From Armatimonadota bacterium (GTDB lineage: Bacteria > Armatimonadota > UBA5829 > DTLH01): 26,186 nucleotides of DNA. Position numbers and translations under genes: made by a program. The notes below the pieces were generated by a model. The model was not told the DNA's origin, searched no databases, and worked only from the letters and a program-made list of their open reading frames with translations. The stretch covers positions 1 to 26,186 of the forward strand of contig JBDKSP010000106.1 in NCBI GenBank assembly GCA_039680575.1. Direction: 5' to 3'. Below are positions 4,738-21,775 of this stretch, in pieces; the first letter of the stretch is position 1, and every line of letters begins with the position of its first letter.

Positions 4738-4775
4738 GTGATATTAGGATTTTGGGGAATGGTGGAGATTTCATA

Positions 4776-4805
4776 TGCTTCGGGACCGCAGTTCGTCCCG
4801 AAGCA
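4776..4805 (+). repeat. REP-like palindrome type A (TGCTTCGGGAC-CGCAGTTC-GTCCCGAAGCA)
   Basis: Perfect 11-bp stem. Identical at 10530-10559 and 11753-11782, inverted at 18788-18817. Confidence 0.92.
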
Positions 4806-4911
4806 CGATAATTCGTCTTTTACCGACGTCACCTGGCCTGTGTATACCAATATTTCGGCTGAATACTTATAAGAAATGGCCTGCACTTTGTTAAGTTGCA
4901 TCTGTATTGCC

Positions 4912-4981
4912 ATCACCTGTTCATCAGACAGACTGATGTGATGATGGCGGCTTCGGTGTAAAAATGCGTGTCCCAAAGCAT
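4912..4981 (+). repeat. Repeat E plus degenerate REP type B (copy 1)
   Basis: 4912-4956 matches 5947-5991 at 43/45 positions. Contains CATCAG/CTGATG hairpin followed by GCTTCGG...AAGCAT. Confidence 0.85.
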
Positions 4982-5012
4982 TAAAACGTGTGCTAAAGCA
5001 TATGAATAGTGA

Positions 5013-5681
5013 TTATATCACATCGACCTCTTGGATATAAGCAGCTAAAGTATTAATCTGTTCTTTCGGTAGCAGATTAATAAGCTCTTGCCAGAGTACT
5101 TTTGTATGCCAGCTCCGGAGGATGCCTGGCAGCGTATCACCGATATAACATTCATTCTCAACAAGGTCTTGCAGCCAGGTATCCCATTCTGAAAGATGCT
5201 TTGTCAACAAATAGATCTCCTGCCTAACATTCTGATAATGACTGATGTAATTCCTTATCATCATCCTAATGTGAGTTTGATCCTTGCCGCTAAGGAGAAC
5301 ATCCTGATTAAGTTTACTATTATCCCACTCCCGTGACAGAGTAAGTAATTGCCTGTAGGTTTTATTTGATATAGATTTATTCATATGTCGATATATTTTA
5401 TATTGCCATTCTTCTACATATGCAGCTATATCACTTCCGAGTTCTGATGTTACTCTTTGAAGAAATGTATGTGGTGCGTTGTCAGACATAGCATCAAGAT
5501 AGTACTCCCATTCATCTCCTGTTGCTGCTGATTCCATTATCAACTTCCTGGCAATATCGCGTAAACTGTATGAATAAAACCCATCTGCTCCAAGCTCCAC
5601 AACAAGATATGAAGTCGTGTCAAGACTAAGCATTTCTACAGTATCTACCCAATTCAGATTATCTGTCAGATCATCTGTCAT
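5013..5681 (-). CDS. Hypothetical protein (AT-rich orphan, acidic/aromatic; possibly immunity-type)
   Basis: 222-aa ORF with AGAGGA-like RBS upstream. No motif recognised. Confidence 0.7.
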   Translation of the reverse strand: MTDDLTDNLNWVDTVEMLSLDTTSYLVVELGADGFYSYSLRDIARKLIMESAATGDEWEYYLDAMSDNAPHTFLQRVTSELGSDIAAYVEEWQYKIYRHMNKSISNKTYRQLLTLSREWDNSKLNQDVLLSGKDQTHIRMMIRNYISHYQNVRQEIYLLTKHLSEWDTWLQDLVENECYIGDTLPGILRSWHTKVLWQELINLLPKEQINTLAAYIQEVDVI

Positions 5682-5800
5682 TGGAAAATTGTCCTCTTTA
5701 GTATTAATTCGGTAAGCAACTTGAACATACGAACAATATACCTCATAATATTAACATAGTAAAGTAGCCACAATATATATTTAGAACTGATGAGATACCA

Positions 5801-5837
5801 GATTAGTAGTATGGTGCTTAATACCATACTACTAATC
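5801..5837. repeat. Perfect 15-bp inverted repeat
   Basis: GATTAGTAGTATGGT (5801-5815) / ACCATACTACTAATC (5823-5837), 7-nt loop. Confidence 0.85.
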
Positions 5838-5880
5838 CATATTACGCAGCTCTTCTCAATGGTGGTATTTTATATGCTGT

Positions 5881-5934
5881 GGGAATGGCAGATTTAGGGT
5901 AATTGTGCAATATGCATAGAATCAATTCCCGCAG
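5881..5934 (+). repeat. Repeat D (54 bp, copy 1)
   Basis: 53/54 identical to 6998-7051. Self-complementary ends GGGAAT...ATTCCC. Confidence 0.92.
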
Positions 5935-5946
5935 GTAGCAACGGGA

Positions 5947-6014
5947 ATCACCTGTTCATCAGCCAGACTGATGTGATGATGGCGTCTTCGGAGCAAAAAC
6001 TCGCGCTGAAGCAT
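5947..6014 (+). repeat. Repeat E plus REP type B (copy 2)
   Basis: Matches 4912-4956. CTTCGGAGCAAAAACTCGCGCTGAAGCAT is the reverse-orientation homolog of 12535-12563. Confidence 0.88.
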
Positions 6015-6028
6015 CCCAATAACTTATA

Positions 6029-6964
6029 CTAAACCTTCCGTTCCCGAATACGAAAAGTATTACACTTGCACGCTTCCAATGCTTTCTCAACCCATTCAGA
6101 ATCGAAGTTGTCCTTGAACCGACATAATACAGGACATAAGCTATGATCCGCAAGTTCGTACGCAGCCTCAAGTGTATAATCAGAGATGTTTTCTTGAGCT
6201 AATTGCCAGGATAACTCGTGAATCAGTAGCTCCACAGTTCCTGCTGTGTGTCTGCGCGCTAGTCCTAATAGTGCCTGAGACCTAACTTCAGCGTCCTCAT
6301 CACTTACTCGTTTTAGCAATGCCTCAGTAATCTCTGGCCATTCTACTAATGTCAGGTGCTCTGCCCCAAGCTCAAACACTGCCCAATCCCTCACATTCCT
6401 ATCTTTGTCTGCTGACAGTTTGATTAACGCTTTTACTGCAGACTTATCTTCATGTCCTGGCGTATTCAATAGTGCAGCACCCAGCGCAAGAACAATTACT
6501 GTTCGCACTTCTGCATCTGAATGATCCACAAATGGCAAAATGTGAGGGATAATCGCCGGGTAATTTTTCAAGTAAATCGGTGCGCGTCCGTGAATTTCGA
6601 CATTGCCGATAACACGGAAATCTTCCAAATGTCGTAACGCATCTACTATATAATAGATTACATCACTATCATTCTCCTTGCTTATCATTCGCGTGAGTAT
6701 ATCTGCTGAATCTTTGATGAATGGCCTGTCTGGAAAACCGAGAAAACCCAGGATTTCTGCACCAAGTGCCCTTTCTTGTGGTTCTTCACTGGCACATAGT
6801 TCTTTGGCTGCCAAGAAGACACTTTCACTGTCCTGCTTATTCTGTAACTCGTGAATGATCTGCTCTCGCTTATCCTCCTCATCTTGAGCTAGAGCAGCCA
6901 TTATTAGTTCTCTTATGTTTCTTGAATTACCTAAATCATATGGCGTTTTGTCTTCATTGGACAT
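6029..6964 (-). CDS. HEAT-repeat (PBS lyase-like) protein
   Basis: Repeated motifs ERALGAEILG, DHSDAEVRTVIVLALG, DKDRNVRDWAVFELG, DEDAEVRSQALLGLA. GGAGG RBS. Confidence 0.85.
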   Translation of the reverse strand: MSNEDKTPYDLGNSRNIRELIMAALAQDEEDKREQIIHELQNKQDSESVFLAAKELCASEEPQERALGAEILGFLGFPDRPFIKDSADILTRMISKENDSDVIYYIVDALRHLEDFRVIGNVEIHGRAPIYLKNYPAIIPHILPFVDHSDAEVRTVIVLALGAALLNTPGHEDKSAVKALIKLSADKDRNVRDWAVFELGAEHLTLVEWPEITEALLKRVSDEDAEVRSQALLGLARRHTAGTVELLIHELSWQLAQENISDYTLEAAYELADHSLCPVLCRFKDNFDSEWVEKALEACKCNTFRIRERKV

Positions 6965-6997
6965 GTCATATCCTCCATATAGTAGGGCTTTTTATTC

Positions 6998-7051
6998 GGG
7001 AATGGCAGATTTAGGATAATTGTGCAATATGCATAGAATCAATTCCCGCAG
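6998..7051 (+). repeat. Repeat D (54 bp, copy 2)
   Basis: 53/54 identical to 5881-5934. Confidence 0.92.
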
Positions 7052-7080
7052 TAACGAGAAAATTGGCGAATGTCGTGCTT

Positions 7081-7114
7081 CTCCCCGTGGTCCGGTAGGT
7101 CCACGGGGTGGATG
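7081..7114 (+). repeat. Palindromic repeat type C (CCCCGTGG-N10-CCACGGGG), copy 1
   Basis: 32/34 identical to 16110-16143. Lies just past the glmM stop codon. Confidence 0.85.
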
Positions 7115-7151
7115 AAAAGCGATCCCGAATAACATGGAAACGAAGGGTTAG

Positions 7152-8519: not shown

Positions 8520-9473
8520 CTATGGGGTTTGATCGGACACGATTCTTATGGTTACTTTAACCTTGCCTGTGCCCTCGAGTTCTATTCCTGGCGGAACATG
8601 TAGTCCTACATAGCGGATGACATCAGATGTCGCGCCACTTACATCAACATCGTCAGTCAATATAATGCTGGTGCCGGCAAGCCTTTCCGGTTTGCCGTTT
8701 ACCATAATGGAGCTTGGTGTTATGCTGACCTTTGTGACCTTGTATGGGAATTCAGGCTGGCCTATTATGCTTGGGCTTACGAATACTGCTTTGTTCGCCG
8801 GGGCTTCAACCAGCTTCATAGCGATATGAGCATCATCAGGGGCTACATCCACACCATGTACCTCGTTACCGCGAGCATCCAATGCTTTGATGGCTGCATA
8901 TTCGTCTACTGAGGGCTTGAGCGGGGTAGGGTCGACTACAACCACCAGCCGCGCTACGCTGTTTACAAGGCTGCTTCCGCCGGATATCGTCGCGGTAGCG
9001 GGTGAAATATCCGGCTGGCTCGCAGACAGTCCAATGGGCGGTGAGGTCTTTATCCTGACCTGCACCGGCATCGTCCGGGACGAAACAGCATCCACAGTAA
9101 CGAGCATGTGCTGCGGAACAGCCTGAACGGTGACATCTCTGCCCGTAGAATCGGGAATATCGATCTTCACCGGTATGTCGTGATCTCCTGCCTGGCGGCC
9201 TCTGATGTCCACCAGTGCCCTGGCTTCACCTGATTTTACCATTGCAATGACTGCATCTATATCACTTTTGGACCCGCGAAGAGAGACTGTTACTTTGTCC
9301 TGGCGGGGTCTTGCGACATACCCGTCCTGGATATGAACAGCCTGTACCGTCATGTCGAGCGATGCAGTTGTCCATGGATTTCGCTCGCTGTGTACGTATG
9401 AAGACAGAATGATCGCGATACCTAAAGCGAGCAGTTTGTAAGGCCAATTGCTGAGCAGTTTGCGGGCTGACAT
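8520..9473 (-). CDS. cdaR: CdaR/YbbR-domain regulator of diadenylate cyclase
   Basis: N-terminal TM segment NWPYKLLALGIAIIL, repeated beta-rich YbbR-like units, position between cdaA and glmM. Confidence 0.88.
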   Translation of the reverse strand: MSARKLLSNWPYKLLALGIAIILSSYVHSERNPWTTASLDMTVQAVHIQDGYVARPRQDKVTVSLRGSKSDIDAVIAMVKSGEARALVDIRGRQAGDHDIPVKIDIPDSTGRDVTVQAVPQHMLVTVDAVSSRTMPVQVRIKTSPPIGLSASQPDISPATATISGGSSLVNSVARLVVVVDPTPLKPSVDEYAAIKALDARGNEVHGVDVAPDDAHIAMKLVEAPANKAVFVSPSIIGQPEFPYKVTKVSITPSSIMVNGKPERLAGTSIILTDDVDVSGATSDVIRYVGLHVPPGIELEGTGKVKVTIRIVSDQTP

Positions 9474-10327
9474 TATTTATACCTCAAACCGGCTCGCCGC
9501 AGGGTGACATCGACCGTTTTTCTGAATTGTGATCTATCTGAATTGTCGCCATCGCCGAATATCGATTTAAGCCATGTGGAAAGCGTGTCCTGGTTCAACC
9601 CGCTGTGGAGCTTGCCTTCGAGCGCGAGAGATATCGTTCCGGTCTCTTCAGAGACGACAACGACAACTGCATCGCTTTGTTCTGTGACGCCGATTGCGGC
9701 CTTATGCCGCGTGTGGATCATTGTGCCGATATGCACGCTCTCCGAAAGCGGCAGGATGCACCCGGCGGCGACTATTTTGTTTCCCCGGATGATGACCGCT
9801 CCGTCGTGGAGTGCGCTGCCGGGGTGGAATATCGTGGTAAGAAGATGAGCTGATACTGCTCCCTGTATCACCGTTCCGGTTTCTATCAGACTTTCGAGCC
9901 CTACGTCACGTTCCAGCACTATAAGCGCTCCGACACGCTGCGCTGACATTCTAGACGCCGCTTCAGCTATTGTCTGGATGATCGTAGAGATGTCTTCCTG
10001 AGCGAGTCTCGAAAACCCTCGGCTCCAACCAGCCCACTTGCCCATTTCCTCCAGAAGGTGGCGAAGCTCAGGGTAAAAAAGCAGAACGATAGCGACTGGT
10101 CCTAACGGCAGGAATATCTGAAGCAGCCAGTTTATCGTAACCAAGCCGAGCCGTCGGCTGACATATAAAAAGAGGAAGAAAATGACCAGTCCCCATATAA
10201 CCCGCCAGGCTCTGGAACGCTTTGCGAACATCATGAGCGAGTAAATTGCTATGGAGACCAATATGACGTCTATTATGGACGAGAGAAGCCCGACCCACCC
10301 GACCTGGAATAACCTATGCAGCCACAC
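9473..10327 (-). CDS. cdaA: Diadenylate cyclase CdaA
   Basis: Three N-terminal TM segments, PELR, GALIVLER, LHDGAVI, TRHKAA (RHR variant), VVSEETG. Confidence 0.94.
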   Translation of the reverse strand: MWLHRLFQVGWVGLLSSIIDVILVSIAIYSLMMFAKRSRAWRVIWGLVIFFLFLYVSRRLGLVTINWLLQIFLPLGPVAIVLLFYPELRHLLEEMGKWAGWSRGFSRLAQEDISTIIQTIAEAASRMSAQRVGALIVLERDVGLESLIETGTVIQGAVSAHLLTTIFHPGSALHDGAVIIRGNKIVAAGCILPLSESVHIGTMIHTRHKAAIGVTEQSDAVVVVVSEETGTISLALEGKLHSGLNQDTLSTWLKSIFGDGDNSDRSQFRKTVDVTLRRAGLRYK

Positions 10328-10524
10328 GGCTTTTAGTCCTGTATCCTTCTCTTCGTGGATAACGCTTGTTAACGAAGTTTACGCTATTTTGTACACTCAA
10401 TATAATAACACCGAGCTGTACACCCGGTCAACCAAAAATAAGATTTTTGGTGCGCATAGCGAGAGCAGAGTGGAGCCTTTTTGACGCGGATATTACGGAT
10501 GGGATGGGGAATCTATAGAAAGTA

Positions 10525-10614
10525 TGGTATGCTTCGGGACCGCAGTTCGTCCCGAAGCAGGAATCTCCATAAATTTAAAGAGCTGGCTTCGGCGCAAAGC
10601 TCGCGCCGAAGATT
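10525..10614 (+). repeat. 90-bp direct repeat (REP-A + REP-B doublet), copy 1
   Basis: Identical to 11748-11837. Contains hairpins at 10530-10559 and 10587-10611. Confidence 0.95.
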
Positions 10615-10628
10615 TCAAAGCAGGTATA

Positions 10629-11723
10629 TCACTTCAATTTAGAAGTAACATCCTTCCACTTCTGCTGTTTATCATCGATAACTCCGGGAATTGTTATTGC
10701 TTTGATGACCTTACCGTCTCGATTGGCAAAGACAAGCGCATTCAGATAGTTGTCTGCATATACACATTCAATGTCAAACGCCTGTCCAGATTTAAAGATA
10801 CTGTTACCTATGTAGATCAGCCTAAACAAGCGATTTCCTTCCTGCCAAACTGGGGCATATATGTAAAACCACAAGGAGTTTGGCTTTGAATCTTCGGCAT
10901 CTATTAGTACAAAGAAATTGCCATCCATTACCTCCATCATCCTGTAAACCTTATTGGTATCTGCCCACTTGGCAATAGCTGTCACATTCTTCGACTCAAT
11001 CAATAACGATAGTTTCTTACCTCGAATGTTGATTTCAGCAGGTAGGTCAGGATAATAACTCTCCTTATTCTGTTGATCACGATATTCTTTGAGTTCGTTT
11101 TTCTTCACGGATTTATCTGTATTGGTGTCTCCAGAGCCATTGAAATCGCAGTTTTCCACTAGGCTAAGCTCTTTATCAATAGATAATCCTGCGTACGTTT
11201 GCACCCTGCTTCCAAAGACCAGTGAGCGCGACTTGGTATCTACATAGATTGTTTCGATTGTCCGCCAATTAGTAGAGAACACTCCTTCGCCAACATATAC
11301 TAACTTCCATGGCTTGGAATCCTTTTTACTCAATGGGCAATGGGCAAATAGATAAACCCACCTAAGATCACCACCTGATAAACCATTATCGAGAACTACG
11401 ACGAATTTACCTGCGTCGAATGGCACTTCCCACATAAGATTACCGATTCTATTGGCAATGGCCCAAGCCACAATTTCTTGCCTGTCTTTTGCTTGCTGAA
11501 GTAGTTGGTATCTAGTGCCAACTGGCAGATTGATCTCGGTAGGTAAGTTCGGATAATGGTAGTTTCTGCTACTATCGAATGCTGGATCAGAAATTGAGAA
11601 TTGCCTACTCACACATGTGGAACTCCAGTTATCCGCCTCCTTGATTATTGTTTGCCCATCAGCACTAGAGAAAATGAATGTGCAGACCAGCACAATTGTA
11701 AAAAGGAAGCAATTTCTACACAT
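10629..11723 (-). CDS. Secreted hypothetical protein with two tandem homologous domains
   Basis: Signal-peptide-like N-terminus, GGAGG RBS. YPNLPTEIN... / YPDLPAEIN... internal duplication. Confidence 0.8.
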   Translation of the reverse strand: MCRNCFLFTIVLVCTFIFSSADGQTIIKEADNWSSTCVSRQFSISDPAFDSSRNYHYPNLPTEINLPVGTRYQLLQQAKDRQEIVAWAIANRIGNLMWEVPFDAGKFVVVLDNGLSGGDLRWVYLFAHCPLSKKDSKPWKLVYVGEGVFSTNWRTIETIYVDTKSRSLVFGSRVQTYAGLSIDKELSLVENCDFNGSGDTNTDKSVKKNELKEYRDQQNKESYYPDLPAEINIRGKKLSLLIESKNVTAIAKWADTNKVYRMMEVMDGNFFVLIDAEDSKPNSLWFYIYAPVWQEGNRLFRLIYIGNSIFKSGQAFDIECVYADNYLNALVFANRDGKVIKAITIPGVIDDKQQKWKDVTSKLK

Positions 11724-11747
11724 ATTATCCTACCTCCGTTTGTTTTT

Positions 11748-11837
11748 TGGTATGCTTCGGGACCGCAGTTCGTCCCGAAGCAGGAATCTCCATAAATTTA
11801 AAGAGCTGGCTTCGGCGCAAAGCTCGCGCCGAAGATT
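11748..11837 (+). repeat. 90-bp direct repeat (REP-A + REP-B doublet), copy 2
   Basis: Identical to 10525-10614. Confidence 0.95.
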
Positions 11838-11875
11838 CTAATTTACAAATCACCGACCATCAGGTAATCACTATT

Positions 11876-12508
11876 TCACCACCCAGCACGCCCCTTAGGT
11901 AGGCTCTTCCTATAAACATGCTCTATATCTCTATCAAGGTCTCTTACGACCGAACTGTTCTGATCCACACGCTTTATATGTGAACTTTTACGATATTTAG
12001 CTTCCATATCTAATAGATGTGTAGCGATAGCATCGATTTTCTCATATGATTTTTTTGCATCATCTGGTAATTTGGAACGCATCTCTTTCGAGGGCATAGC
12101 AAATACTGATTCTCTGTTTCCAAGAACAAGCTGCAGGTCAGCACCATGATCCATTGGTGGCATCTGTCCAGAGAACCATTTGATATCTGGCTTAAATGTA
12201 AGTAAGTCTTGCTCTGATGACTCAATCGCCTTTCTGAAAGACATCAAGTCTTCTTCAGATAACCTGGCGTTCCATACATTGTAAGACATCTGTCCACCAG
12301 GTCGTATAGAACGGATCGTTCCTTGTGACAGGTCAATAGTCACAAGTCCCCTAAAAGGTACTCTTGTATATAGTGTGATACGTTCCTGCAGGGGTTTCGG
12401 CCTGTTGGTACTCCTGCTTGCATTATTTCGTGCACATCCGGTGATAACGAGTAATGTCAGTATAGCCAGATATACAATATACACATTACGGCTAGAACCC
12501 ACATGCAT
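11876..12508 (-). CDS. Hypothetical lipoprotein
   Basis: ATG 12508 with AAGGAG RBS. Hydrophobic stretch ending in lipobox-like VITGC. 210 aa. Confidence 0.75.
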   Translation of the reverse strand: MHVGSSRNVYIVYLAILTLLVITGCARNNASRSTNRPKPLQERITLYTRVPFRGLVTIDLSQGTIRSIRPGGQMSYNVWNARLSEEDLMSFRKAIESSEQDLLTFKPDIKWFSGQMPPMDHGADLQLVLGNRESVFAMPSKEMRSKLPDDAKKSYEKIDAIATHLLDMEAKYRKSSHIKRVDQNSSVVRDLDRDIEHVYRKSLPKGRAGW

Positions 12509-12532
12509 GCTTAACTCCTTCAGCAATTTTCC

Positions 12533-12563
12533 GTATGCTTCAGCGCGGTTTTTGCGCCGAAGC
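12533..12563 (+). repeat. REP-like palindrome type B (GTAT-GCTTCAGCGCGGTTTTTGCGCCGAAGC)
   Basis: Imperfect hairpin with the same GTATGCTTC foot as type A. Homologs at 14070, 13231, 5986, 4950, 10587, 11810 and 16303. Confidence 0.85.
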
Positions 12564-12657
12564 CCTCATGACCGACATTCACGGCCTGATCGTTCTGTGG
12601 CTACCATCCCGTCTACACTGTCTATCGCCGATGAGCCAGCAACCGTACATCCTTGGT

Positions 12658-13209
12658 CTACCAGTCAATAGTGACACCAGATGCTACTGTCCAGGCTCGT
12701 ACAACTCTGTCATTGCGATCAAATGCGATTTGAAATGTCGAGTTGTTCCAAAGATCATATTTCCAAAAGCTTATTGCTTTCCTTTGACCACCAGTACTAC
12801 GCGGTTTTCCACATAAACTACGAACCTGGTCTTTGGTCATCCCTACCCTCGGTGCACCACCAGGCCAGACTTTCTTTGGAGGGATTTTGACATCATCCGT
12901 CACTACACCTGTGACTCGTCCTGACGGGTCAAAACTTACTATGGCTCCGTGTAGCCAATCTGCATTAGGGTATAACGGATATTCCCAAAGCTCATAGTAG
13001 ATATTCAATCTTTCCCTATCCGGTTTGCCAAGTAATGCAAATGTTTGCTGTTTCGTCATTCCGGGCCTTATTCTATTATATGCAGAGTGCTGAAACCAGA
13101 TGTTGAAAGTTGGCGTATCAATATGATTCATTGACCTGCAAAGATCAAATATTATGCCTATACAAAACATAATCACAATAATTAATATCATAGGCCGTAA
13201 TTTGCCCAT
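12658..13209 (-). CDS. Membrane-anchored protein with two SmpA/OmlA(BamE)-like domains
   Basis: IRPGMTKQQTFALLGKP...WEY and PRVGMTKDQVRSLCGKP...WKY, N-terminal TM. Start placed at ATG 13209 (GAGGGTG RBS). Confidence 0.75.
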   Translation of the reverse strand: MGKLRPMILIIVIMFCIGIIFDLCRSMNHIDTPTFNIWFQHSAYNRIRPGMTKQQTFALLGKPDRERLNIYYELWEYPLYPNADWLHGAIVSFDPSGRVTGVVTDDVKIPPKKVWPGGAPRVGMTKDQVRSLCGKPRSTGGQRKAISFWKYDLWNNSTFQIAFDRNDRVVRAWTVASGVTIDW

Positions 13210-13230
13210 TTTCACCCTCAATATACACGC

Positions 13231-13250
13231 GTATGCGGTTTTTGCGCCGA
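13231..13250 (+). repeat. Degenerate REP type B
   Basis: GTATGCGGTTTTTGCGCCGA equals 12533-12560 with an internal deletion. Confidence 0.7.
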
Positions 13251-13273
13251 CACATCCCAAACTCTGGAAGTCT

Positions 13274-13290
13274 CCCCGGCATAGCCGGGG
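13274..13290. repeat. Short GC hairpin CCCCGGC-ATA-GCCGGGG (IS200-end-like or terminator)
   Basis: Perfect 7-bp stem followed by a T-run on the + strand. Resembles IS200/IS605 subterminal hairpins from memory. Confidence 0.5.
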
Positions 13291-13328
13291 TTTTACCTTT
13301 TTCAATTAGCCTTGGACGTGGTATACAT

Positions 13329-13970
13329 TTAATTGATAATATATTCTCTGTTCGGATCGCGAGGTATCACTCCAAGATCCTGCAGAGCGAGATCCGCAGA
13401 ATCTCTGACTTTGGTGTCCGGATCGTTTATCCATGCATCTTTCAGAGCGTTAATTATGGATGGTGGTATCTTGGGAAAACGTTGAGAGCCAACACCGAAC
13501 AGACTCCATACTGCACCATTACGCATCTCAACATCCATATCAAACAATGAACGGCGATACAATAGAATAAGCAGATTTTCATACTCCGTGTATTCGTCGG
13601 TTATCTCCTCTCGTATCTTCATAAAGATACCTAACGCCATCAATGCCCGCAATCTTAATTCTTTATCTTGAGCAGTCAGCAATTCAGCGATAACCCGAAT
13701 AGCACCGGGGCCAGCTTTTTGTATTTTCTTCTCATTCTCTATTGACAAACTCGGACATACCAGTTTCAGACTAGCGACAGCCTCGCTTACACACTTCTCA
13801 GTTTCCGAGGACAAAGGATACTTGATCCTAAACGCCGTCAGTTTCTCATTTAACTCTTTCAGCAGCTCAGAGGGCATGTTCTCACGAAATACAGGCTGGT
13901 CAGATTGCGCCCCAACGATGCTACTACATACAATTAGCAGTAAAGCGGTTGATAAAACTAGTGTTTTCAT
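13329..13970 (-). CDS. Secreted HEAT-repeat protein
   Basis: Signal peptide. DKELRLRALMALG, DMDVEMRNGAVWSL, DPDTKVRDSADLAL. GAGGAGG RBS. Confidence 0.8.
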   Translation of the reverse strand: MKTLVLSTALLLIVCSSIVGAQSDQPVFRENMPSELLKELNEKLTAFRIKYPLSSETEKCVSEAVASLKLVCPSLSIENEKKIQKAGPGAIRVIAELLTAQDKELRLRALMALGIFMKIREEITDEYTEYENLLILLYRRSLFDMDVEMRNGAVWSLFGVGSQRFPKIPPSIINALKDAWINDPDTKVRDSADLALQDLGVIPRDPNREYIIN

Positions 13971-14069
13971 ATATCTTTCCTCCTCGTAATCTGCATTGTC
14001 AGGCTTTATATTATCTATAGACCATCTGGTGCATCTCGAACTTCAAAAATGTGATTAGGATTATCTTTG

Positions 14070-14100
14070 GTATCCTTCAGCGCGGCTTTTGCGCCGGATA
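14070..14100 (+). repeat. REP type B variant
   Basis: GTATCCTTCAGCGCGGCTTTTGCGCCGGATA aligns with 12533-12563. Confidence 0.8.
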
Positions 14101-14268
14101 TTCAAAACATCGTCTCCGATATATCGGATATAGGGGATTCGTTTGTTAATATAGAGTAATCGGTGCATAGCATAGTTGCTATTATGTCTAAATATATATA
14201 CCACTTGAGGAATATGTCAATGGCTGTTTGCATATATTCCTGATGATGAATCGCGTTTACTCTCCTGC

Positions 14269-14309: not shown

Positions 14310-15407
14310 ATGGCAAGAAAAACCGACAGCGTAAAAAGCTCTGCAATCAGAGCATATCTCTACCACGGAGCGGACGACGCTCAGAAAAAAGCGGCTCTAT
14401 TAAAGCTCGAAGCAGAGATTGTCGACCCTGATTTTCGCGATTTCGACCTCGAACAGCTCTATGGGCCGGATGTGACTGCAGACCGGGTCATGACCGCCGC
14501 AACGATAGCCCCATTTGCCTCGAAACAGCGGTTGGTCATAGTTACTCAGGCGAACGACATATCCACAGCCGAACAGCAGTCTATCGCCTCAAAGCTGGAG
14601 CATGTTCCTGACTTCGTCTGCGTGGTTTTCATCACTCCGGCGCCCAAAATGCAGGACGGAAAGCCCAAGCGCGGGTCTGAGATTCATGCCGATCTGATGA
14701 AAGCGGTCAAAAAGGCCGGCAAATCCGTCGATTTTCCGTTGATGAGGGCCGATGCGGCGGCTCGCTTCGTCCATGATCTCGTAAAACAGCTTGGAAAATC
14801 TATCTCGCCGTCCGCTGCGGCATCGGTTGTCCGCAGATGCGGCACTGACTCAGGGATTTTGGCGACCGAGGTCGAGAAGCTCTTTAATTATGTCGGAGAC
14901 CGCGCGACCGTAACGGACGCGGACGTCCAGCAGGTCATCACAGAGACCGTCGAAGAGAAAATCTTCGCGCTGATGGATGCTATCGGCGCAAAAAAGCCCG
15001 CGCTTGCGATGCACTACCTTCGTCCGCTGCTCCACGGTGGGGGAAGTGAAGTGGCAGGGGAGGCGCTGAGGACACTTGTTATGCTGACGCGCCACTTCAG
15101 GCAGCTTTGGCAGGCGCGGCTTCTGATTGACGCGGGAGGCAGGGCTGGTCGTGTGCCGGAAGACGTAGAGATGGCGCTCCCTGAGAACGGCAGTATCCTC
15201 AAAATGGAGGACTGGAAGCGGAACAAGATCATGGAGCAGGCGAGAAACTTCAGCCTTGGCGATCTGGCGAGGTGCTTCGAGAGGATAGCGGCTGCTGATC
15301 TTGCGATAAAGGGGATAGATGGCGCAGTAAGTGATTCGGCGATGGCGGTAGAGATGCTGACAATGGAACTGAGCAGCCAGCCACAAAGCAAGAAGGGACG
15401 GTTCTAA
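14310..15407 (+). CDS. holA: DNA polymerase III delta subunit
   Basis: YLYHGAD, PFASKQRLVIV, TEVEKL, IFALMDAI, DLAIK. Convergent with rpsT as is common. Confidence 0.92.
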   Translation: MARKTDSVKSSAIRAYLYHGADDAQKKAALLKLEAEIVDPDFRDFDLEQLYGPDVTADRVMTAATIAPFASKQRLVIVTQANDISTAEQQSIASKLEHVPDFVCVVFITPAPKMQDGKPKRGSEIHADLMKAVKKAGKSVDFPLMRADAAARFVHDLVKQLGKSISPSAAASVVRRCGTDSGILATEVEKLFNYVGDRATVTDADVQQVITETVEEKIFALMDAIGAKKPALAMHYLRPLLHGGGSEVAGEALRTLVMLTRHFRQLWQARLLIDAGGRAGRVPEDVEMALPENGSILKMEDWKRNKIMEQARNFSLGDLARCFERIAAADLAIKGIDGAVSDSAMAVEMLTMELSSQPQSKKGRF

Positions 15408-15738: not shown

Positions 15739-15958
15739 CTACGTGTCACCCCCAGTCTTACAAACTAAGTAAACCTGTAAAGTCTATCAGATTATCGGCA
15801 AAAAGGCAAGCGAATTCAATCTTCAGCGATACTTTTTCGATTCAACATAAATCAAAATAGCTCTCCTTTACAAATTTAGCTTTTTTGAACTGCTTCATAG
15901 TTAGCTACTTGTGTAAGATTCACTGTTGATGAGTATGACATCATGCTGAATTATCACA

Positions 15959-16025
15959 ACGTCATGCTGAGCTTGACTCAGCATCCAGGAAGAAAATGGA
16001 CCCTGAATCAAGTTCAGGGTGACGT
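15959..16025. repeat. Cruciform palindromic element (GTCA-hairpin-TCC...GGA-hairpin-TGAC)
   Basis: TGCTGAG-CTTGA-CTCAGCA and CCCTGAA-TCAAG-TTCAGGG hairpins with complementary loops, closed by ACGTCA/TGACGT. Confidence 0.8.
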
Positions 16026-16109
16026 GCTGGTTGTTCAAGGGTGACGTGCTTTCATCTAAGTAGTCTCCGTTTCTAGTAGCAGCTATGGTAGAGTCCGGTT
16101 CTTGCAGAG

Positions 16110-16143
16110 CTCCCCGTGGTCCGGTGGGTCCACGGGGTAGATG
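16110..16143 (+). repeat. Palindromic repeat type C, copy 2
   Basis: 32/34 identical to 7081-7114. Confidence 0.85.
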
Positions 16144-16167
16144 GCCGGCACGGAGACCGGCCACTAC
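16142..16167 (-). repeat. GTAG-family REP-like element
   Basis: Minus strand reads GTAG-TGGCCGG-TCTCCGTG-CCGGCCA, the classic tetranucleotide plus hairpin layout. Confidence 0.65.
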
Positions 16168-16302
16168 GTCAAGCTGGCCTGCTATTAAGACAGGATGTTA
16201 CTTAGGGTGATGTGTTGGTTGTGCAATTTGATGTAAGATCTCTCATTAGGAGTGAACTGTTATCTACTTGTTGCAATAAGGTCATAATATCTACTAAGAT
16301 GG

Positions 16303-16330
16303 ACTTCAGCGCAGAAGACGGCGCAGAAAG
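16303..16330 (-). repeat. Degenerate REP type B upstream of GNAT gene
   Basis: CTTCAGCGCAGAAGACGGCGCAGAAAG aligns with the reverse complement of 12537-12563. Confidence 0.5.
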
Positions 16331-16344
16331 GCAAGATTTGACTC

Positions 16345-16887
16345 GTGAAATCTGATCATTATCTTCTCATTCAGCTCGTGGAAGAGCATTTTTCCGAGTT
16401 GCACAGGTGGAATGTTGCGGAAAAACATATGGAACTCTATACTTGCCAGCCTGTAACAGTGCGGCTTTCGGAGGATGCGTATATCGACAAAATGAGATGC
16501 AATATCAGGAGCGCCACCAACTCATATTATGTGCTGGTGGCAGCGGATAACCACGCCATGCCTCTGGGAAAGATCAGATCGTTCGATTATAACCCGAGAA
16601 ATCACAGCGCCGAGTTCGGATACTACCTCCCTGCGCAGCACAGAGGATGCGGCTTGGGCAGTATAATGCTCAGGAAGTTCCTGGATGTGTTATTTACGGA
16701 CAGTAGATACGATCTGAACAAGCTCTATGCGACTACATCATCGAACAACATCGCTTCCATCAGGCTTTTGGAGAAATACGGCTTCAAATTGGATGGAAGG
16801 CAGAGGGAACACTACTGGGTCGATGGAAATCATTATGACCAGCTTATTTACTCGATTCTGAGATCGGAGTGGGAATGGCTAAAGTAG
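16345..16887 (+). CDS. GNAT-family N-acetyltransferase (RimJ/RimL-like)
   Basis: SAEFGYYL, HRGCGLGS, NIASIRLLEKYGFKLDGRQREH, YSILRSEW. Confidence 0.9.
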   Translation: MKSDHYLLIQLVEEHFSELHRWNVAEKHMELYTCQPVTVRLSEDAYIDKMRCNIRSATNSYYVLVAADNHAMPLGKIRSFDYNPRNHSAEFGYYLPAQHRGCGLGSIMLRKFLDVLFTDSRYDLNKLYATTSSNNIASIRLLEKYGFKLDGRQREHYWVDGNHYDQLIYSILRSEWEWLK

Positions 16888-17091
16888 AACTTCACACTCG
16901 ATGGAGCAGATAATCCGTATTTGCTCATCCAGTCGAATCGCGAAATGCGCGAAGAAGCACGAAAGACGCGAAAAGAGACTCGCCACCTACGGTGTCGGCT
17001 TCGGTGGCAAGCAAACCGAAGCAAAAAGGGTAAACACAGTAAATCTCCACCTTCCGCGGTTCAAAGACGAAAAGCAGACAGCTGCTCTCGC

Positions 17092-17120
17092 TTGCAACTT
17101 TCGCGTTTTCCTGCTATTCT
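17092..17120 (+). promoter_or_regulatory. Sigma-70-type promoter for archease-lexA
   Basis: TTGCAA-17 nt-TATTCT with extended TG. ATG at 17131, no SD. Confidence 0.5.
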
Positions 17121-17130
17121 CTTAATTGAA

Positions 17131-17553
17131 ATGACCGAACGCATATTCGAGACACTTGAGCATACGGCTGACAAAGGGATCGCCGCCTACGGGAAGACGA
17201 TGGCTGAAGCGTTCGAAACGGCAGCCTTCGGGATGTTTTCCCTCTTTGTCGACCCCGGCGCCTACCAGGCCGAGTCGCACCAGGAACTGGCAGTAAAGGC
17301 AGACGACAAGGAACAGCTTCTCTGGACGTGGCTCTCCGAGCTTCAGTTCAAATTCGAAGTCGAACATGTCCTGCCGGTAGAGTTCAAAATAACCGAAATC
17401 AATGATACAAGCCTTACCGCGGATGTTTCGGTGCGGCCGGTGCGAGATGACATCGAGTGGCTCGGGTCTCCGGTCAAGGCAATCACGTTCCACCAGCTTA
17501 TAGTCGAAGAGACGGACAAAGGCTGGCACATTCAGGTCTATGTTGACGTTTGA
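17131..17553 (+). CDS. Archease
   Basis: LEHTADKGIAAYG, WLSEL, VKAITFHQL, VYVDV C-terminus. True start is 17131; the upstream ORF extension is repeat-derived. Confidence 0.92.
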   Translation: MTERIFETLEHTADKGIAAYGKTMAEAFETAAFGMFSLFVDPGAYQAESHQELAVKADDKEQLLWTWLSELQFKFEVEHVLPVEFKITEINDTSLTADVSVRPVRDDIEWLGSPVKAITFHQLIVEETDKGWHIQVYVDV

Positions 17554-17595
17554 TTCGCTTATAGCAATGCGGACCGGCACGAGAGGTGATACCAG

Positions 17596-18213
17596 GTGCA
17601 GAGAGAATTATCGCCCAGACAGAGGCAGATACTCGATTATATAGTGCAGCATATTGAGATGCACGGATACCCGCCGACGGTGCGGGAGATCGGTGAGGCG
17701 GTGAACCTGTCATCGAGCTCCACCGTCCACGCCCATCTTCGAAACCTCGAAGAAGCGGGGTTGATTCGGCGCGATGCTGTGCTCACGCGGGCGATCCAGA
17801 TAGTTGCGGGCACGACGACCAGTTTCAAGCCGAAAAAAGTCGTATCGCTCCCGGTGGTCGGGCAGGTCGCTGCCGGCAAGCCGATGCTCGCCGTCGAAGA
17901 TATAATCGATACCTATCCAGTCCCACAGGAGTTTCTTTCTGGGACAGATGGGTTTATGCTGAAAGTCCGGGGCGAGAGCATGATCGAGGACGGCATAAAC
18001 GACGGCGACTATGTTGTAGTCCGCAGGCAGCAGACCGCTGACAACGGCGAAACGGTCGTCGCGCTTGTCGACAACGAAGCGACAGTCAAAAGGTTTTATC
18101 TCGAAGATGGCCGGATCCGGCTTCAACCGGCTAACTCGACCATGGAGCCGATGTATTTCCCGCACGTCGATATAGTTGGAAAAGTCGTCGGGCTCGTCCG
18201 CCGGATGGGCTAG
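17596..18213 (+). CDS. lexA: SOS repressor LexA
   Basis: GYPPTVREIG, SSSTVHAHL, VAAG cleavage site, GESM catalytic Ser, ATVKRF catalytic Lys. Confidence 0.97.
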   Translation: MQRELSPRQRQILDYIVQHIEMHGYPPTVREIGEAVNLSSSSTVHAHLRNLEEAGLIRRDAVLTRAIQIVAGTTTSFKPKKVVSLPVVGQVAAGKPMLAVEDIIDTYPVPQEFLSGTDGFMLKVRGESMIEDGINDGDYVVVRRQQTADNGETVVALVDNEATVKRFYLEDGRIRLQPANSTMEPMYFPHVDIVGKVVGLVRRMG

Positions 18214-18246
18214 TTTTATTATTGTGATATACTGTATCGTTCATTA

Positions 18247-18276
18247 ACCCGCGAGGTAGGCTTGCGGGGTGTTTTT
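18247..18276 (+). terminator. Probable intrinsic terminator after lexA
   Basis: CCCGCGAG/CTTGCGGG stem followed by TGTTTTT. Confidence 0.55.
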
Positions 18277-18298
18277 CTGTACGGAGGTAATCAGGCTA

Positions 18299-18751
18299 AT
18301 GCCGAGAGTTGAGAGTTCCATAACCATCAATGGCCCGCTGGACAGGGTGTACGAGTGCGCGAAGGACATAGAACGGTTTCCTGAGTTCATGCCGGATGTT
18401 AAGGATGTTAAGATCACCGAAAGGGACGGAAACCGCATAATAAGCGAGTGGGCTGCCTTTATACCGGACTTCAAAATGACAGTCAAGTGGGTAGAAGAAG
18501 ACCTTTGGAACGATGAAGTCAGAACCTGCGACTTCAAGCTCGTGAAAGGTGATTACGCTGCCTATTCGGGCAAGTGGACCTTTACTGAAGCCGACGGCAT
18601 TGCCAAATTCGACTCTGTCGTGGACTATGAATACGACATTCCGCTGATCGGCGCACTCATTCAGGGTCTCGTGAAACGTAAAGTCCAGGAAAATGTGGAT
18701 CAGATACTTCAGTCAGTGAAGAAGAAAGTAGAAGAAGAATATAGGATATAG
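18299..18751 (+). CDS. SRPBCC/polyketide cyclase-like (Coq10/RatA-like) protein
   Basis: VESSITINGP, DIERFPEFMPDV, GKWTF. GGAGGT RBS before ATG 18299. Confidence 0.85.
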   Translation: MPRVESSITINGPLDRVYECAKDIERFPEFMPDVKDVKITERDGNRIISEWAAFIPDFKMTVKWVEEDLWNDEVRTCDFKLVKGDYAAYSGKWTFTEADGIAKFDSVVDYEYDIPLIGALIQGLVKRKVQENVDQILQSVKKKVEEEYRI

Positions 18752-18787
18752 GATTGAGGAATTAAGGATGAGTCTGGTGGAAATTCG

Positions 18788-18817
18788 TGCTTCGGGACGA
18801 ACTGCGGTCCCGAAGCA
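18788..18817 (-). repeat. REP type A, inverted copy
   Basis: Exact reverse complement of 4776-4805, with shared flanks TCATA/CGA. Confidence 0.92.
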
Positions 18818-18874
18818 TATGAACCGTACATATCCCCCCTAAATCCTTCCATCCCTTAGTTGAGACCTTTGACT

Positions 18875-20215
18875 ATGAAATATGATGTAATTATAATCGG
18901 CGCTGGGCCGGCGGGGATATTTGCCGCGCTCGAACTTGCCAAAACGCCGGACATCAAAATAGCGATAATCGATAAAGGACAGGACATCACCGAGAGGACC
19001 CGGCAGAAGTCACTCCTCTCGGGTTGGGGAGGCGCTGGAGCGTTTTCGGACGGTAAACTGACGCTTTCGACCCATGTGGGCGGCTGGCTGGACAAGTTTA
19101 TGCTGGACCACGAACTCCAGGAGCTTGTGGATCAGGTCGATCAGACATGGATCAACTTTGGCGCACCCGAGCGGACCTACGGCACGAACCAGGACGATAT
19201 AGCAGAGCTTCAGCGGAAAGCTGCTCTGGCGGAACTGAGGTTAGTACCGTCCGAGATCAGGCACATCGGCACGGAAGTCTGTCCGGTCGTGCTGAAAGCC
19301 ATGCGGGATGAGCTCAGCAGCCGTGTGGACATCATGACCGACACCGCAATATCGTCGCTCGTAACTGCAGACAGCCGGATAACAGGGGTCGAGACTATCG
19401 ACGGGCGGGTGATCGATGCGGATTACGTCATCGCCGCGCCGGGCCGCGAGGGTGCGGACTGGCTGGCATCGGAGGCCCGAAGGCTTGGTTTGAGGACGAT
19501 CACGAACCCGGTAGACATCGGTGTCCGTGTGGAGGTTCCGGCGCCGGTCCTGGCGGAGCTTACGGATGTCGTATACGAGCCTAAGCTGGTCTATTACACC
19601 CAGTTCTTTGACGACCAGGTGAGATCCTTCTGCGTCTGTCCGATGGGAGAGGTCGCTATGGAGGAGAGTGACGGAGTTCGGACTGTAAACGGCCATTCTT
19701 ACGCTCATACAAAGACGGAAAACACCAACTTCGCGCTTTTGGTATCGACCTCGTTTACGGAGCCGTTCCGCGAGCCTATTACTTACGGGCGCTATATCGC
19801 CACACTCTCGAACCTGCTTTCCGGCGGGGTGATCGTACAGCGGCTCGGCGACCTGCAGGCGGGCCGAAGGTCGACGGAGGCAAGGATCGCGCGCGGGCTG
19901 GTCAAACCTACGCTTGAGACGGCTGTTCCGGGAGACCTGTCGTTTGTCCTGCCGTACAGATACCTGGCCGGGATAAGTGAGATGCTGAGAGCAATGGACA
20001 AGCTCTCTCCGGGAGTCGGGTCACGACATACACTGCTCTATGGAGTCGAGGTGAAGTTCTATTCGTCCAGGCTTGAGATCTCACCTAAGCTTGAGGCAGA
20101 GATACGCAACCTCTTTACGGTAGGCGATGGCGCGGGAGTAACCCGTGGATTAGTCCAGGCGTCGGCGTCGGGACTTGTGGCCGCAAGAGAGATAGCAAGA
20201 AGAGTAGCGGGATAG
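18875..20215 (+). CDS. NAD(P)/FAD-dependent oxidoreductase (uncharacterised FAD-dependent dehydrogenase family)
   Basis: IIGAGPAG, GGAGAFSDGKL, DIGVRVE, VNGHS, GDGAGVTRG. Confidence 0.88.
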   Translation: MKYDVIIIGAGPAGIFAALELAKTPDIKIAIIDKGQDITERTRQKSLLSGWGGAGAFSDGKLTLSTHVGGWLDKFMLDHELQELVDQVDQTWINFGAPERTYGTNQDDIAELQRKAALAELRLVPSEIRHIGTEVCPVVLKAMRDELSSRVDIMTDTAISSLVTADSRITGVETIDGRVIDADYVIAAPGREGADWLASEARRLGLRTITNPVDIGVRVEVPAPVLAELTDVVYEPKLVYYTQFFDDQVRSFCVCPMGEVAMEESDGVRTVNGHSYAHTKTENTNFALLVSTSFTEPFREPITYGRYIATLSNLLSGGVIVQRLGDLQAGRRSTEARIARGLVKPTLETAVPGDLSFVLPYRYLAGISEMLRAMDKLSPGVGSRHTLLYGVEVKFYSSRLEISPKLEAEIRNLFTVGDGAGVTRGLVQASASGLVAAREIARRVAG

Positions 20216-20232
20216 TTTCGGAATTTAATAAG

Positions 20233-20263
20233 GCCCGGTGCAGTTTTGCACCGGGCTGCTTTT
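20233..20263 (+). terminator. Intrinsic terminator between convergent genes
   Basis: GCCCGGTGCA/TGCACCGGGC 10-bp stem followed by a T-rich tail. Confidence 0.75.
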
Positions 20264-20324
20264 AATATAATATTTTCCTAACTTATAAGTATCTTTGGTA
20301 TCTTTCGGCTGTTGTCTGTATTCA

Positions 20325-21293
20325 TTACGCCGTCGGGCTGGAATATATTGATAACATTTTTTGCGCGTTCTCATCGATCAGTTTACGTAGATCATCCGGC
20401 TCGATAACTTCGGCATTGCTGCCCCAACTGAGTATCCAGAAGCTGATTTCTTCGATTCCTGATACCTTTACCGAGAAGATTACCCCGCCATCAGGCGTAT
20501 CCTGCAGTTCCTGGCTCGGATGGCGCTTAGTCTCTTTGATAATCCGCGCAACCCTCGGTGAAAACTTCACCCGTACCAACCGCTCTTCATCGCCGGTCCA
20601 CATTTCCCAGCTCTTTGCATAAAAACTATCGACAGAGAAGTCATGCGGCAACTGGAAGTTCTCGCCGGTCTTTTCGGCTTTGACTATCCGAATAAGCTTG
20701 AGCTGGATAATGCGTCCGTGAGAATGAGAAAACGCGATCAGATACCAGTTGTGTCGCCTGAACACCAGTGCATACGGATCTATGAACAGCGATTTGGTCT
20801 CACCGCTCCGCTGCGAACAATAGATAACGGATATGCGCTTGCTGCGTTCGATGGAATCCGCAAGGCAGTCCACCACCTCTGATGATGCTTTTGTTTGTGA
20901 ACACTGAGAAGCATATATCGAGCGATCCGTTATAGAGGACTGTACTTCCTTAAGGCTGTCTCCAGTAAGAGCGAGTTCTATTTTTTTCCATGCCGTGACA
21001 GCGTAGTCCGAGAACGGAGCGCCTTTACCAAGCGCATTGGAAGTAAGCGCAAGCCGGACGGCAAGGACTTCCTTGGGAGAAAGGTCCAACTGGCTCGAAA
21101 CCGGACGCTCTGCCAGATAATATCCGCCCTGCTCGCAGTAGATCCCCACATGGAGCTCGTCAGATAACGATTCCAGATATCTGTAGATCGTGCGCTCAGA
21201 GCGTCCGAGAATAGCAGCCAGCTTATCGATGCTGAGCCCCGGCCTTTCACGCAACAGATCTATCATTTGAAGTAGTAAAATCGACTTTGGCAT
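20325..21293 (-). CDS. HTH-WYL-WCX transcriptional regulator (YafY/PafBC-like)
   Basis: LGRSERTIYRYL HTH, IDPYALV...WYLIAF, WILSWGSNAEVIEPDDLR. Confidence 0.93.
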   Translation of the reverse strand: MPKSILLLQMIDLLRERPGLSIDKLAAILGRSERTIYRYLESLSDELHVGIYCEQGGYYLAERPVSSQLDLSPKEVLAVRLALTSNALGKGAPFSDYAVTAWKKIELALTGDSLKEVQSSITDRSIYASQCSQTKASSEVVDCLADSIERSKRISVIYCSQRSGETKSLFIDPYALVFRRHNWYLIAFSHSHGRIIQLKLIRIVKAEKTGENFQLPHDFSVDSFYAKSWEMWTGDEERLVRVKFSPRVARIIKETKRHPSQELQDTPDGGVIFSVKVSGIEEISFWILSWGSNAEVIEPDDLRKLIDENAQKMLSIYSSPTA

Positions 21294-21568
21294 AACAACC
21301 CCCCACATTCAGTGGCCCGTTTATCTTCTTAACAATGCGACCTCTAAATTCCTCCTGTCATTTTCTGAATTTCACCGTCTTCGAACAAACTTCACCTGTC
21401 TTCCCCGCAATTAAAGGCAACTCCGGCAAAGGATGGTTTACTGCCGGGAGAATTACGACAGCATTATAGCTGAAAATTCGCAGGTGTTTGTTATTATTGG
21501 TAAAAACCCGTAGGATGGACAGTTGGGAATAGAGTGAACAGAAGGTAAACGTGGATGAAAGGAATTAC

Positions 21569-21722: not shown

Positions 21723-21735
21723 AATAGATATATCG

Positions 21736-21775
21736 AAAAGGGCTCATCCGGTCTAGTCAACCGGATGAGCCCTTT
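21736..21775 (-). terminator. Intrinsic (likely bidirectional) terminator after PEP-CTERM gene
   Basis: Perfect 16-bp stem AAAGGGCTCATCCGGT/ACCGGATGAGCCCTTT. Confidence 0.8.

Follow-up and report, generated by a model that had tools for sequence, protein, structure and literature searches.

What carries genes into and out of the interval between cdaA and holA in a bacterium of the Armatimonadota? The stretch of DNA analysed here (the window) is 26,186 nucleotides (nt) long and forms contig JBDKSP010000106.1 (C106 in our numbering) of assembly GCA_039680575.1, the source genome (G000; 122 contigs, 96.8% complete), in which a simple custom caller recognised 2622 genes. Between cdaA and holA lie four minus-strand open reading frames in the same orientation, which code for proteins of 364, 210, 183 and 213 amino acids (aa) and are numbered here genes 1 to 4. 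Their GC content (0.41–0.43) is lower than that of the flanking genes (0.53–0.56) and the genome median (0.52), as described in the original prediction, which was made from the DNA letters alone and which had each gene headed by a related hairpin with a GTAT foot. We compared this interval with that of a same-genus relative (G001, core DNA ~88% identical to G000) and of a member of the same family (G004). The array of short, co-oriented genes turns over between these relatives, and the breakpoints fall at the feet of hairpins derived from a transposase element. Judged from sequence comparison, the capture and exchange of cassettes delimited by the ends of repetitive extragenic palindromes (REPs), at the hairpin feet, has roughly an even chance of being the correct explanation. 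The hairpins may serve in this way as gene-cassette joints without an integron enzyme.

The GTAT motifs stand at 10527, 11750, 12533, 13231 and 14070, the last four at 26, 24, 21 and 99 nt, respectively, from a start codon, which confirms both the positions and the spacings first proposed. All five junctions carry a hairpin, but these are not variants of a single type: they fall into two families, A (10527 and 11750) and C (12533, 13231 and 14070), and a GTAT foot occurs in only 17 of 85 C copies. As DNA, the hairpins at 10527, 11750 and 12533 fold better than shuffled sequences (z-scores of −5.5, −5.8 and −2.6), and folding alone is not beyond chance at 13231 (z −1.8) and 14070 (z −0.4). The 14070 hairpin scores 26.9 bits on the family C profile, compared with 10.1 bits for the best match in the reversed genome used as a control; the 13231 hairpin scores 10.7 bits, below the cut of 13 bits. 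Rfam had no matches in the window.

The hairpins do head the genes, but they also stand at their other ends. Extra C hairpins with feet on the opposite strand are found at the gene stops (10614 and 11838 and, in eroded form, ~12652 and ~13257), so the genes of the array are bracketed rather than merely headed. The unit is a doublet with its feet pointing outwards, and each gene sits between two feet that face it, foot to foot between neighbouring mini-elements. The first doublet (10525–10614) combines an A hairpin (foot at 10527, plus strand) with a C left-end hairpin (foot at ~10614, minus strand) and ends 14 nt from the stop of gene 1. In an identical A+C doublet (11748–11837; 100% identity over 90 nt), one foot precedes the start codon of gene 1 by 26 nt and the other follows the stop of gene 2 at ~38 nt; gene 1 thus lies between perfect 90-nt direct repeats. 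The third junction is an eroded mini-REPtron (12533–12655, minus strand) with a right-end C hairpin (foot at 12533) and a decayed left-end foot 3–6 nt from the stop of gene 3. The fourth is a collapsed, double-footed and eroded C hairpin (13231–13257), recognised from its sub-threshold profile score together with alignment; a clean collapse of a 250-nt doublet into one double-footed hairpin is seen between contig C93 of G000 and contig C10 of G001. Abutting this junction is the solo left end of an element (13258–13310, minus strand), cut exactly at the hairpin foot. It is single in G000 and has seven near-identical copies at contig ends of G001, whose inner sequence opens an IS200-type TnpA frame, consistent with an element that is multi-copy and unassembled in G001. 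From the N-terminal TnpA motif, we take this element to belong to the IS200 family. One of its G001 copies abuts an A foot (C45). The last junction (14070–14103, plus strand) is an eroded, double-footed anchor C hairpin common to G001 that marks a synteny breakpoint.

Comparison with transposase proteins identified these hairpins as the two ends, left and right, of an element that has lost its interior and originally encoded a REP-associated tyrosine transposase (RAYT, also TnpA-REP, of the Y1-HUH type). Four C+C doublets of 250 nt (C11, C47 and C93 of G000 and C10 of G001) encode the first 25–30 RAYT codons joined to the last dozen codons and match RAYT proteins of three other genomes by tblastn (E 7e-8 for G036, 2e-11 for G006 and 3e-11 for G018). 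The mini-REPtron of the array retains ~90 nt of right-end spacer, including the last RAYT codons (~12601–12630), and is 89% identical over 91 nt to the element at C11. Furthermore, an intact RAYT gene on the minus strand in G018 (L218, 299–856), whose HUH residues His62 and His64 and catalytic Tyr146 are invariant in the alignment, is bracketed feet-out by hairpins close to family A (22 invariant columns in common), and 23 copies of A-like hairpins are present in that genome. The G018 protein scores 75.3 bits on NF047646, just below the cut-off of 80, and matched no solved structure. The RAYTs of G021, G006 and G036 have similar ends, and hairpins of another family (G) at 5873 and 6998 in the window match the ends of a sister RAYT clade. 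At E 1e-20, 16 of the 351 genomes searched in the phylum have a member of the cognate clade; neighbouring clades are included in this count. The canonical REP foot, GT(A/G)G, is absent, and family C has NNAT instead, with AT as its conserved part (72 of 85 copies). Atypical hairpins have been described for RAYT subclass 2.6 (PMC6006769). Two intact RAYTs of G000 score above the family cut-off and are 24–26% identical to the G018 protein; we rejected them as cognate enzymes, as they are flanked by other hairpins. In G033 (L132), a genome that is 68% complete, we counted 59 RAYT-family matches, many of them in tandem 570–1000 nt apart, which is unusual for a gene said to be single-copy. G001 carries a RAYT with its own directly repeated ends (C28:73063-73993; L058) where G000 has only other repeats; RAYT genes thus come and go between the two genomes.

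The view of the hairpins as REP-type structures rather than integron attC sites held up, given the RAYT scraps and the lack of attC cores. The RYYYAAC core was found on the gene strand at none of the five junctions, and GTTRRRY at one. Nor was there an integron integrase among the 10 tyrosine recombinase domains of G000, which best match Xer-like proteins. On the integron-integrase model (TIGR02249), they score 120 bits or less, split into two stretches in the five best; only catalytic stretches were scanned, to which the whole-protein cut-off of 265 is not directly applicable. We therefore rejected an integron. A search with the Y2 transposase family (PF04986) found no match in G000, but 14 control genomes were equally blank. 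A phage source of the hairpins was also rejected: viral contigs gave 0 matches to the exact C pattern and one distant RAYT-like locus (31%). The same pattern is found in 6 of 53 genomes of the class, of which G000, G001 and G004 alone have multiple copies.

Gain and loss of genes with breakpoints at the hairpins, which had been proposed as a check, is seen at this interval in G001 and G004, in a strain-level allele and at other C loci shared with G001. The G001 interval contains three unrelated genes (one orphan and two with ankyrin repeats), each behind a C foot, between flanks that are 88–93% identical to those of G000. The alignment of the two genomes resumes at window position 14067, and ungapped identity stops 4 nt past the 14070 foot. 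From this one common foot, different genes start at 99 nt (G000) and ~10 nt (G001). In G004, cdaA and holA are ~300 nt apart with no gene between them. In G002 and G005, the contigs stop close to cdaA, and the cdaA gene of G003 has a different neighbour. A metagenome search with cdaA returned eight loci, none of this genus; two have holA beside cdaA and no insert, and one of the two matches G004 in sequence.

Alleles closer to the source genome were found in X2, a run of a strain with few core-gene differences, and X3, a run from the same study. Contig 14 of X2 matches 12533–13287 (33 differences) and carries gene 3 and the mini-element, with a further 224 letters past the foot that are unlike those of the window; contig 19 of X3 breaks at the same base, 12533, and runs on unlike. 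Contig 13 of X2 matches 9412–10611 (cdaA and the first doublet) and continues for 489 letters, which may map elsewhere in the array. The read depth of X2 is 0–0.02 over 10878–11745, compared with ~9 in the flanks, and we did not count this lack of cover as evidence. A loose end of X3 at 13258 belongs to the interior of an IS200 copy at another position and was therefore not taken as a cassette breakpoint.

Similar changes occur at other positions. The comparison with G001 covered 1.56 of its ~3.1 Mb, some of it chosen around hairpin matches, which biases genome-wide fractions for G001. Six of eight rows of C hairpins common to G000 and G001 have an unrelated foot side, with identity ending at most 4 nt from the foot; without one mispaired row, the count is 5 of 7 C loci versus 1 of 15 for family A. 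Unlike genes start from a shared C foot at four loci besides 14070. One variable site lies in the window itself, between a phoU-like gene and glmM (4774–7134, minus strand). In G000, it holds two low-GC genes (5013–5681 and 6029–6964) for a 222-aa orphan and a 311-aa HEAT-repeat protein, both covered by X2 contigs, with C feet 31 and 14 nt from the gene stops and hairpins of the sister family G upstream. In G001, one different gene (160 aa) occupies the site, with a break 4 nt from the foot. Contig C57 of G001 behaves similarly when compared with C54 of G000, as do further loci. Genes inside feet-out pairs were seen twice (C47 of G000 and C57 of G001).

A 3404-nt block running from a left end to a right end (G000 C93:22082-25483, L213; G001 C10:21041-24444) is 99.3% identical between the two species. 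The median identity of the 334 blocks of at least 1 kb is 88.2%; this block tops them all and only one other reaches 96%. In G001, its gene codes for a 1093-aa MFS-domain protein; in G000, a gap of one base breaks the frame into parts of 440 and 626 aa. This identity points to recent transfer of a bracketed gene between species. Elsewhere in G000, tandem paralogues split by end remnants were found at C47:40468-44150 (L212; 648 and 624 aa) and C9:13000-13805 (L211; two of 76 aa); they look like duplications with the repeat as the joint.

The genome-wide maps separate the two families. Enrichment beside low-GC DNA is seen for family C only: of its 51 copies in G000 (at least 13 bits), 18 of the 47 assessed have low-GC DNA on the foot side, compared with 160 of 2319 control edges (p 2e-9), and 13 of 41 do so when this contig is excluded. 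Likewise, the foot side is missing from G000 at 22 of 38 G001 C copies, compared with 107 of 498 control edges (p 3e-6) and 4 of 41 copies of family A. Twelve feet-out doublets (A+C or C+C) of 86–253 nt were counted. In G000, 528 repeat islands (68 kb in all) consist of modules nested in one another, which derive from the ends of at least six RAYT families. For example, an H repeat is inserted into the loop side of family A in ~26 copies.

How could hairpin ends move the genes between them? A RAYT, cognate or cross-reacting, would bind the folded single-strand hairpin and cut 5' of the foot. It would stay on the hairpin-bearing strand as a phosphotyrosine until the 3'-OH of another strand resolves it. 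Such chemistry has been described for TnpA-REP, which binds folded REPs, cuts single-stranded DNA 5' or 3' of them through a 5'-phosphotyrosine resolved by a 3'-OH (PMC8266576, PMC3333891), and carries out strand transfer in vitro with the foot helping to select the cut site (PMC3333891, PMC8266576). Acting at two feet that face a gap, one per strand, the enzyme would set the fragment between them. With a right end on one side and a left end on the other, a gene would be 5' of a foot on each strand, and foot-proximal cutting would therefore place or replace DNA where the breakpoints fall. Cuts at two equivalent ends could free a gene-plus-doublet unit for re-entry at another doublet, which would produce the perfect 90-nt repeat around gene 1. 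Recombination of the RecA type between repeats was probably part of later swapping, duplication and loss. The cut of the IS200 end at the 13258 foot fits the joining of arbitrary DNA at a foot. Short genes with little beyond a ribosome-binding site would be kept when they face away from the promoter-like site at 14220, and the array would thereby supply surface or exported proteins in varying sets. The system may be eroding here, or its enzyme may be unassembled.

Several observations weigh against this explanation. The kind of enzyme that the original prediction considered possible left its ends in the array, but no intact RAYT of the cognate clade was detected in the G000 or G001 assemblies at E 1e-20, where a repeated gene could be unassembled; a RAYT flanked by nearly the same hairpins, an arrangement proposed as a check, was found in G018. 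Nothing in the sequences ties the movement of the genes to the enzyme instead of to homologous recombination between repeats. We found no cassette gene with brackets at more than one locus, and the 15 listed of 24 joints, from contigs only, included neither an excision joint nor a circle joint. The proposed tie between hairpins and a class of genes fails for family A, the source of the foot at 11750, which behaves as an ordinary genome-wide REP: with 75 BLAST matches and 83–93 pattern matches in G000, it lies beside ordinary genes, and the foot side is low in GC at 4 of 77 copies. Of the 23 A-type copies in G018, 7 were viewed, and most of these are also beside DNA of ordinary GC content. Even for family C, the far side is low-GC (12 of 47) or lineage-specific (16 of 38) as well, with a weaker bias. 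The polarity of the ends (right end towards a start, left end towards a stop) is 5:0 versus 5:10 with strict motifs (p 0.03), and outside this locus the rule is not significant (p 0.2). We dropped a looser classification of the ends (9:0 versus 6:14, with 2 ambiguous), which misclassified the 14070 copies. Of the 90 lineage-specific inserts with genes in the compared part of G001 (contig-end loci excluded), only 7 show an inward C foot, four of these at the two sites in this window, and hairpin arrays are thus a minor channel of gene gain. X2 and X3 come from one study. At many A copies, identity likewise stops a few bases past the foot even though the flanks are related. Because short extensions of this kind occur there, the signal is carried by the unrelated gene and not by the sharpness of the break.

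The most serious alternative, which we regard as possible but doubtful, is that the mini-REPtrons are passengers. They would jump by means of a RAYT into AT-rich gaps beside genes of other provenance, and homologous recombination between their copies would then delete, duplicate or swap these genes without any capture at the foot. A bias towards AT-rich targets is possible, as 23 of 77 C copies have a TTG ahead of the foot (1.6% in the background) and the following bases are T-rich. The enrichment for low-GC DNA on both sides of C copies, the repeat mosaics that are indel hotspots across the genome and the 83 of 90 lineage-specific inserts that have no inward C foot also agree with passengers. 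So do the tandem paralogues at C47 and C9 and the collapsed doublet at C93, which resemble recombination products. Yet colonisation would leave the gene-side spacer in common, and the genes that start from the shared 14070 anchor do so at different distances, as unlike genes do from a shared foot at four more loci. Furthermore, gene 3 is retained in the strain-level allele, and the sequence there changes at the foot's first base.

Insertion of gene circles at the REP-derived hairpins by some other recombinase is unlikely, whether an unrecognised tyrosine recombinase, an IS200 TnpA or a member of the IS110 family. REPs have been described as targets of insertion sequences (PMC3333891; PMC8450116), and G000 contains one IS110 transposase, located among repeats and absent at that site in G001, besides the 10 tyrosine recombinases. 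The IS200 ends that abut the foot at 13258 and the A foot of C45 in G001 also favour such an enzyme. However, no recombinase gene is in or beside the array, and the ten catalytic-domain stretches are best read as Xer-like and are split or low-scoring on the integron-integrase model. In addition, the breakpoints lie outside the foot and not in the stem, where the nested H repeat inserts. Very improbable, finally, is a plain insertion hotspot with flank-to-flank homologous recombination and hairpins kept as terminators or mRNA stabilisers, roles described for REPs (PMC3333891) and compatible with the conserved flanks and with a terminator-like hairpin on the plus strand (11810–11834), for it leaves the RAYT coding scraps, the perfect 90-nt repeat and the breaks at feet unexplained, the terminator-like matches at the junctions do not lie on the gene strand but on the other one, and X2 suggests alleles with novel joints on feet that differ inside the array.

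Capture and exchange at REP ends also has a stronger form, which we offer tentatively and think less likely than not to hold as a whole. It views this RAYT clade and its miniature elements as an HUH-based counterpart of the integron that joins foreign single-stranded DNA, moves gene-plus-doublet units, builds polarised arrays of surface-protein genes behind a fixed promoter and passes these arrays between species. RAYT-REP systems are long-persistent and have been argued to need a host benefit (bioRxiv 10.1101/2021.07.10.451892), and such a counterpart would be that benefit. Should the enzyme prove to join foreign DNA at the feet, cassette arrays would have a second way of arising, and the enzyme would be a compact tool for single-strand joining. 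If not, the repeats would still act as portable recombination joints for orphan genes. The locus offers defined left and right ends, an intact enzyme of the cognate type (in G018), three alleles of one site and a recently shared block.

The array genes themselves have few relatives. Gene 1 (10629–11723, minus strand) is an orphan that matches only itself among 1500 candidates and has no Pfam, NCBIfam or PADLOC family; in Atlas, it had no feature match, and its structure matches reached a TM score by query of only 0.26–0.38. Gene 2 (11876–12508, minus strand), with a lipobox-like N-terminus, also has no Pfam, NCBIfam or PADLOC family, and its one match (25% identity, E 5e-12 pairwise) is a G001 gene that lies within a different hairpin array (C57). 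Gene 3 (12658–13209, minus strand) has an N-terminal membrane segment followed by two BamE/SmpA-like stretches (Pfam BamE, E 9e-10) and no match in 300 other genomes of the phylum. Gene 4 (13329–13970, minus strand) has a signal-peptide-like N-terminus and HEAT-like repeats (Pfam HEAT_2, E 4e-5, under the cut-off), matches of 22–31% in 3 of 52 other genomes of the class and one paralogue (26%) in G000. All four have a hydrophobic N-terminus (12-residue Kyte-Doolittle peaks of 2.9–3.5; a peak of at least 2.3 is found in 25% of the called genes overall and in 44% of those with low GC), although the signal-peptide, lipobox and anchor labels were read by eye and are not predictor calls. PADLOC recognised no defence family among the four, and a defence island was therefore rejected.

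The conserved flanks are cdaA (9473–10327, minus strand), a diadenylate cyclase gene with the Pfam domains DAC and CdaA_N, and holA (14310–15407, plus strand), with DNA_pol3_delta; each is 96% identical in G001. A sigma-70-like site reading into the array (14191–14220, minus strand) is a candidate common promoter. It matches 11 of 12 consensus positions, the best of 14 sites (10.7 expected by chance), and both of its hexamers are identical in G001. At ~14000, the cumulative GC skew of the window turns from falling to rising, and gene orientation flips there too. The window also contains another abundant repeat (1–127, 2689–2846, 21568–21727 and 26094–26186; the commonest 14-mer has up to 76 copies, on both strands) and a 365-nt mosaic of several repeat families (15893–16259), including the GTAG-footed REP of a RAYT at C71. 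X2 and X3 contigs skip this mosaic cleanly. A 6.8-kb block (15819–22665) is not at this position in G001, where only a 637-nt piece was matched in the compared half. It carries a GNAT gene and a PEP-CTERM gene and, by our own reading, archease-like, lexA and WYL-type regulator genes.

By ancestry, the array belongs with the REPtron, BIME and REPIN systems, whose reference hosts are E. coli, Pseudomonas, Stenotrophomonas and Marinomonas (PMC3333891, PMC8266576, PMC6006769, PMC3733652). Like them, it has footed hairpins in inverted pairs, tens of intergenic copies, mosaics of repeat classes and, in a relative (G018), a Y1-HUH gene bracketed by the same hairpins. It differs in its foot (NNAT, often TTG-NN-AT, instead of GT(A/G)G), in doublets that are internal RAYT deletions keeping coding scraps, in having no intact cognate enzyme in the G000 assembly and in one family whose copies enclose lineage-specific genes one at a time, in arrays that have their breakpoints at the feet. 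The suggestion that a REPtron unit can sequester flanking genes was made in 2011 (PMC3333891). A search of literature full text, with subscription papers and preprint supplements outside it, found no REP-end-delimited multi-gene arrays with mapped breakpoints. TnpA-REP has been linked to prochlorosin clusters, a causal claim later withdrawn in a note by the authors (bioRxiv 10.1101/2020.03.09.984088). As described there, RAYT genes and truncated fragments occur among strain-variable small genes, as they do here, and diversifying recombination was proposed; one family is expanded in those clusters, whereas unrelated genes lie between defined ends with mapped breakpoints in our array.

Two further groups of systems invite comparison. 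IS200/IS605 derivatives and the rolling-circle capture by IS91, ISCR and Helitron elements rely on HUH enzymes, hairpin ends in single-stranded DNA and mini-elements. The array shares with them the HUH enzyme, hairpin ends, internally deleted mini-elements and capture of neighbouring DNA, the IS91/ISCR/Helitron type of which is named in PMC3333891. In contrast, the scraps here match RAYT and not IS200 TnpA or Y2 enzymes, and most of the cargo is outside the feet, between elements. Integron arrays and CALINs (clusters of attC sites without an integrase) are tandem arrays of short co-oriented genes that have folded single-stranded joints and an upstream promoter and turn over. The cdaA–holA array resembles them in its tandem short genes with little beyond a ribosome-binding site, one folded single-strand site per joint, a candidate upstream promoter, turnover between close relatives and many orphan exported proteins. 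Unlike integrons and CALINs, it has no attC cores or integron integrase, and its joints are transposase ends whose feet face the gene from both sides; furthermore, the alleles seen here changed at the promoter-distal end, which sets them apart from integron arrays.

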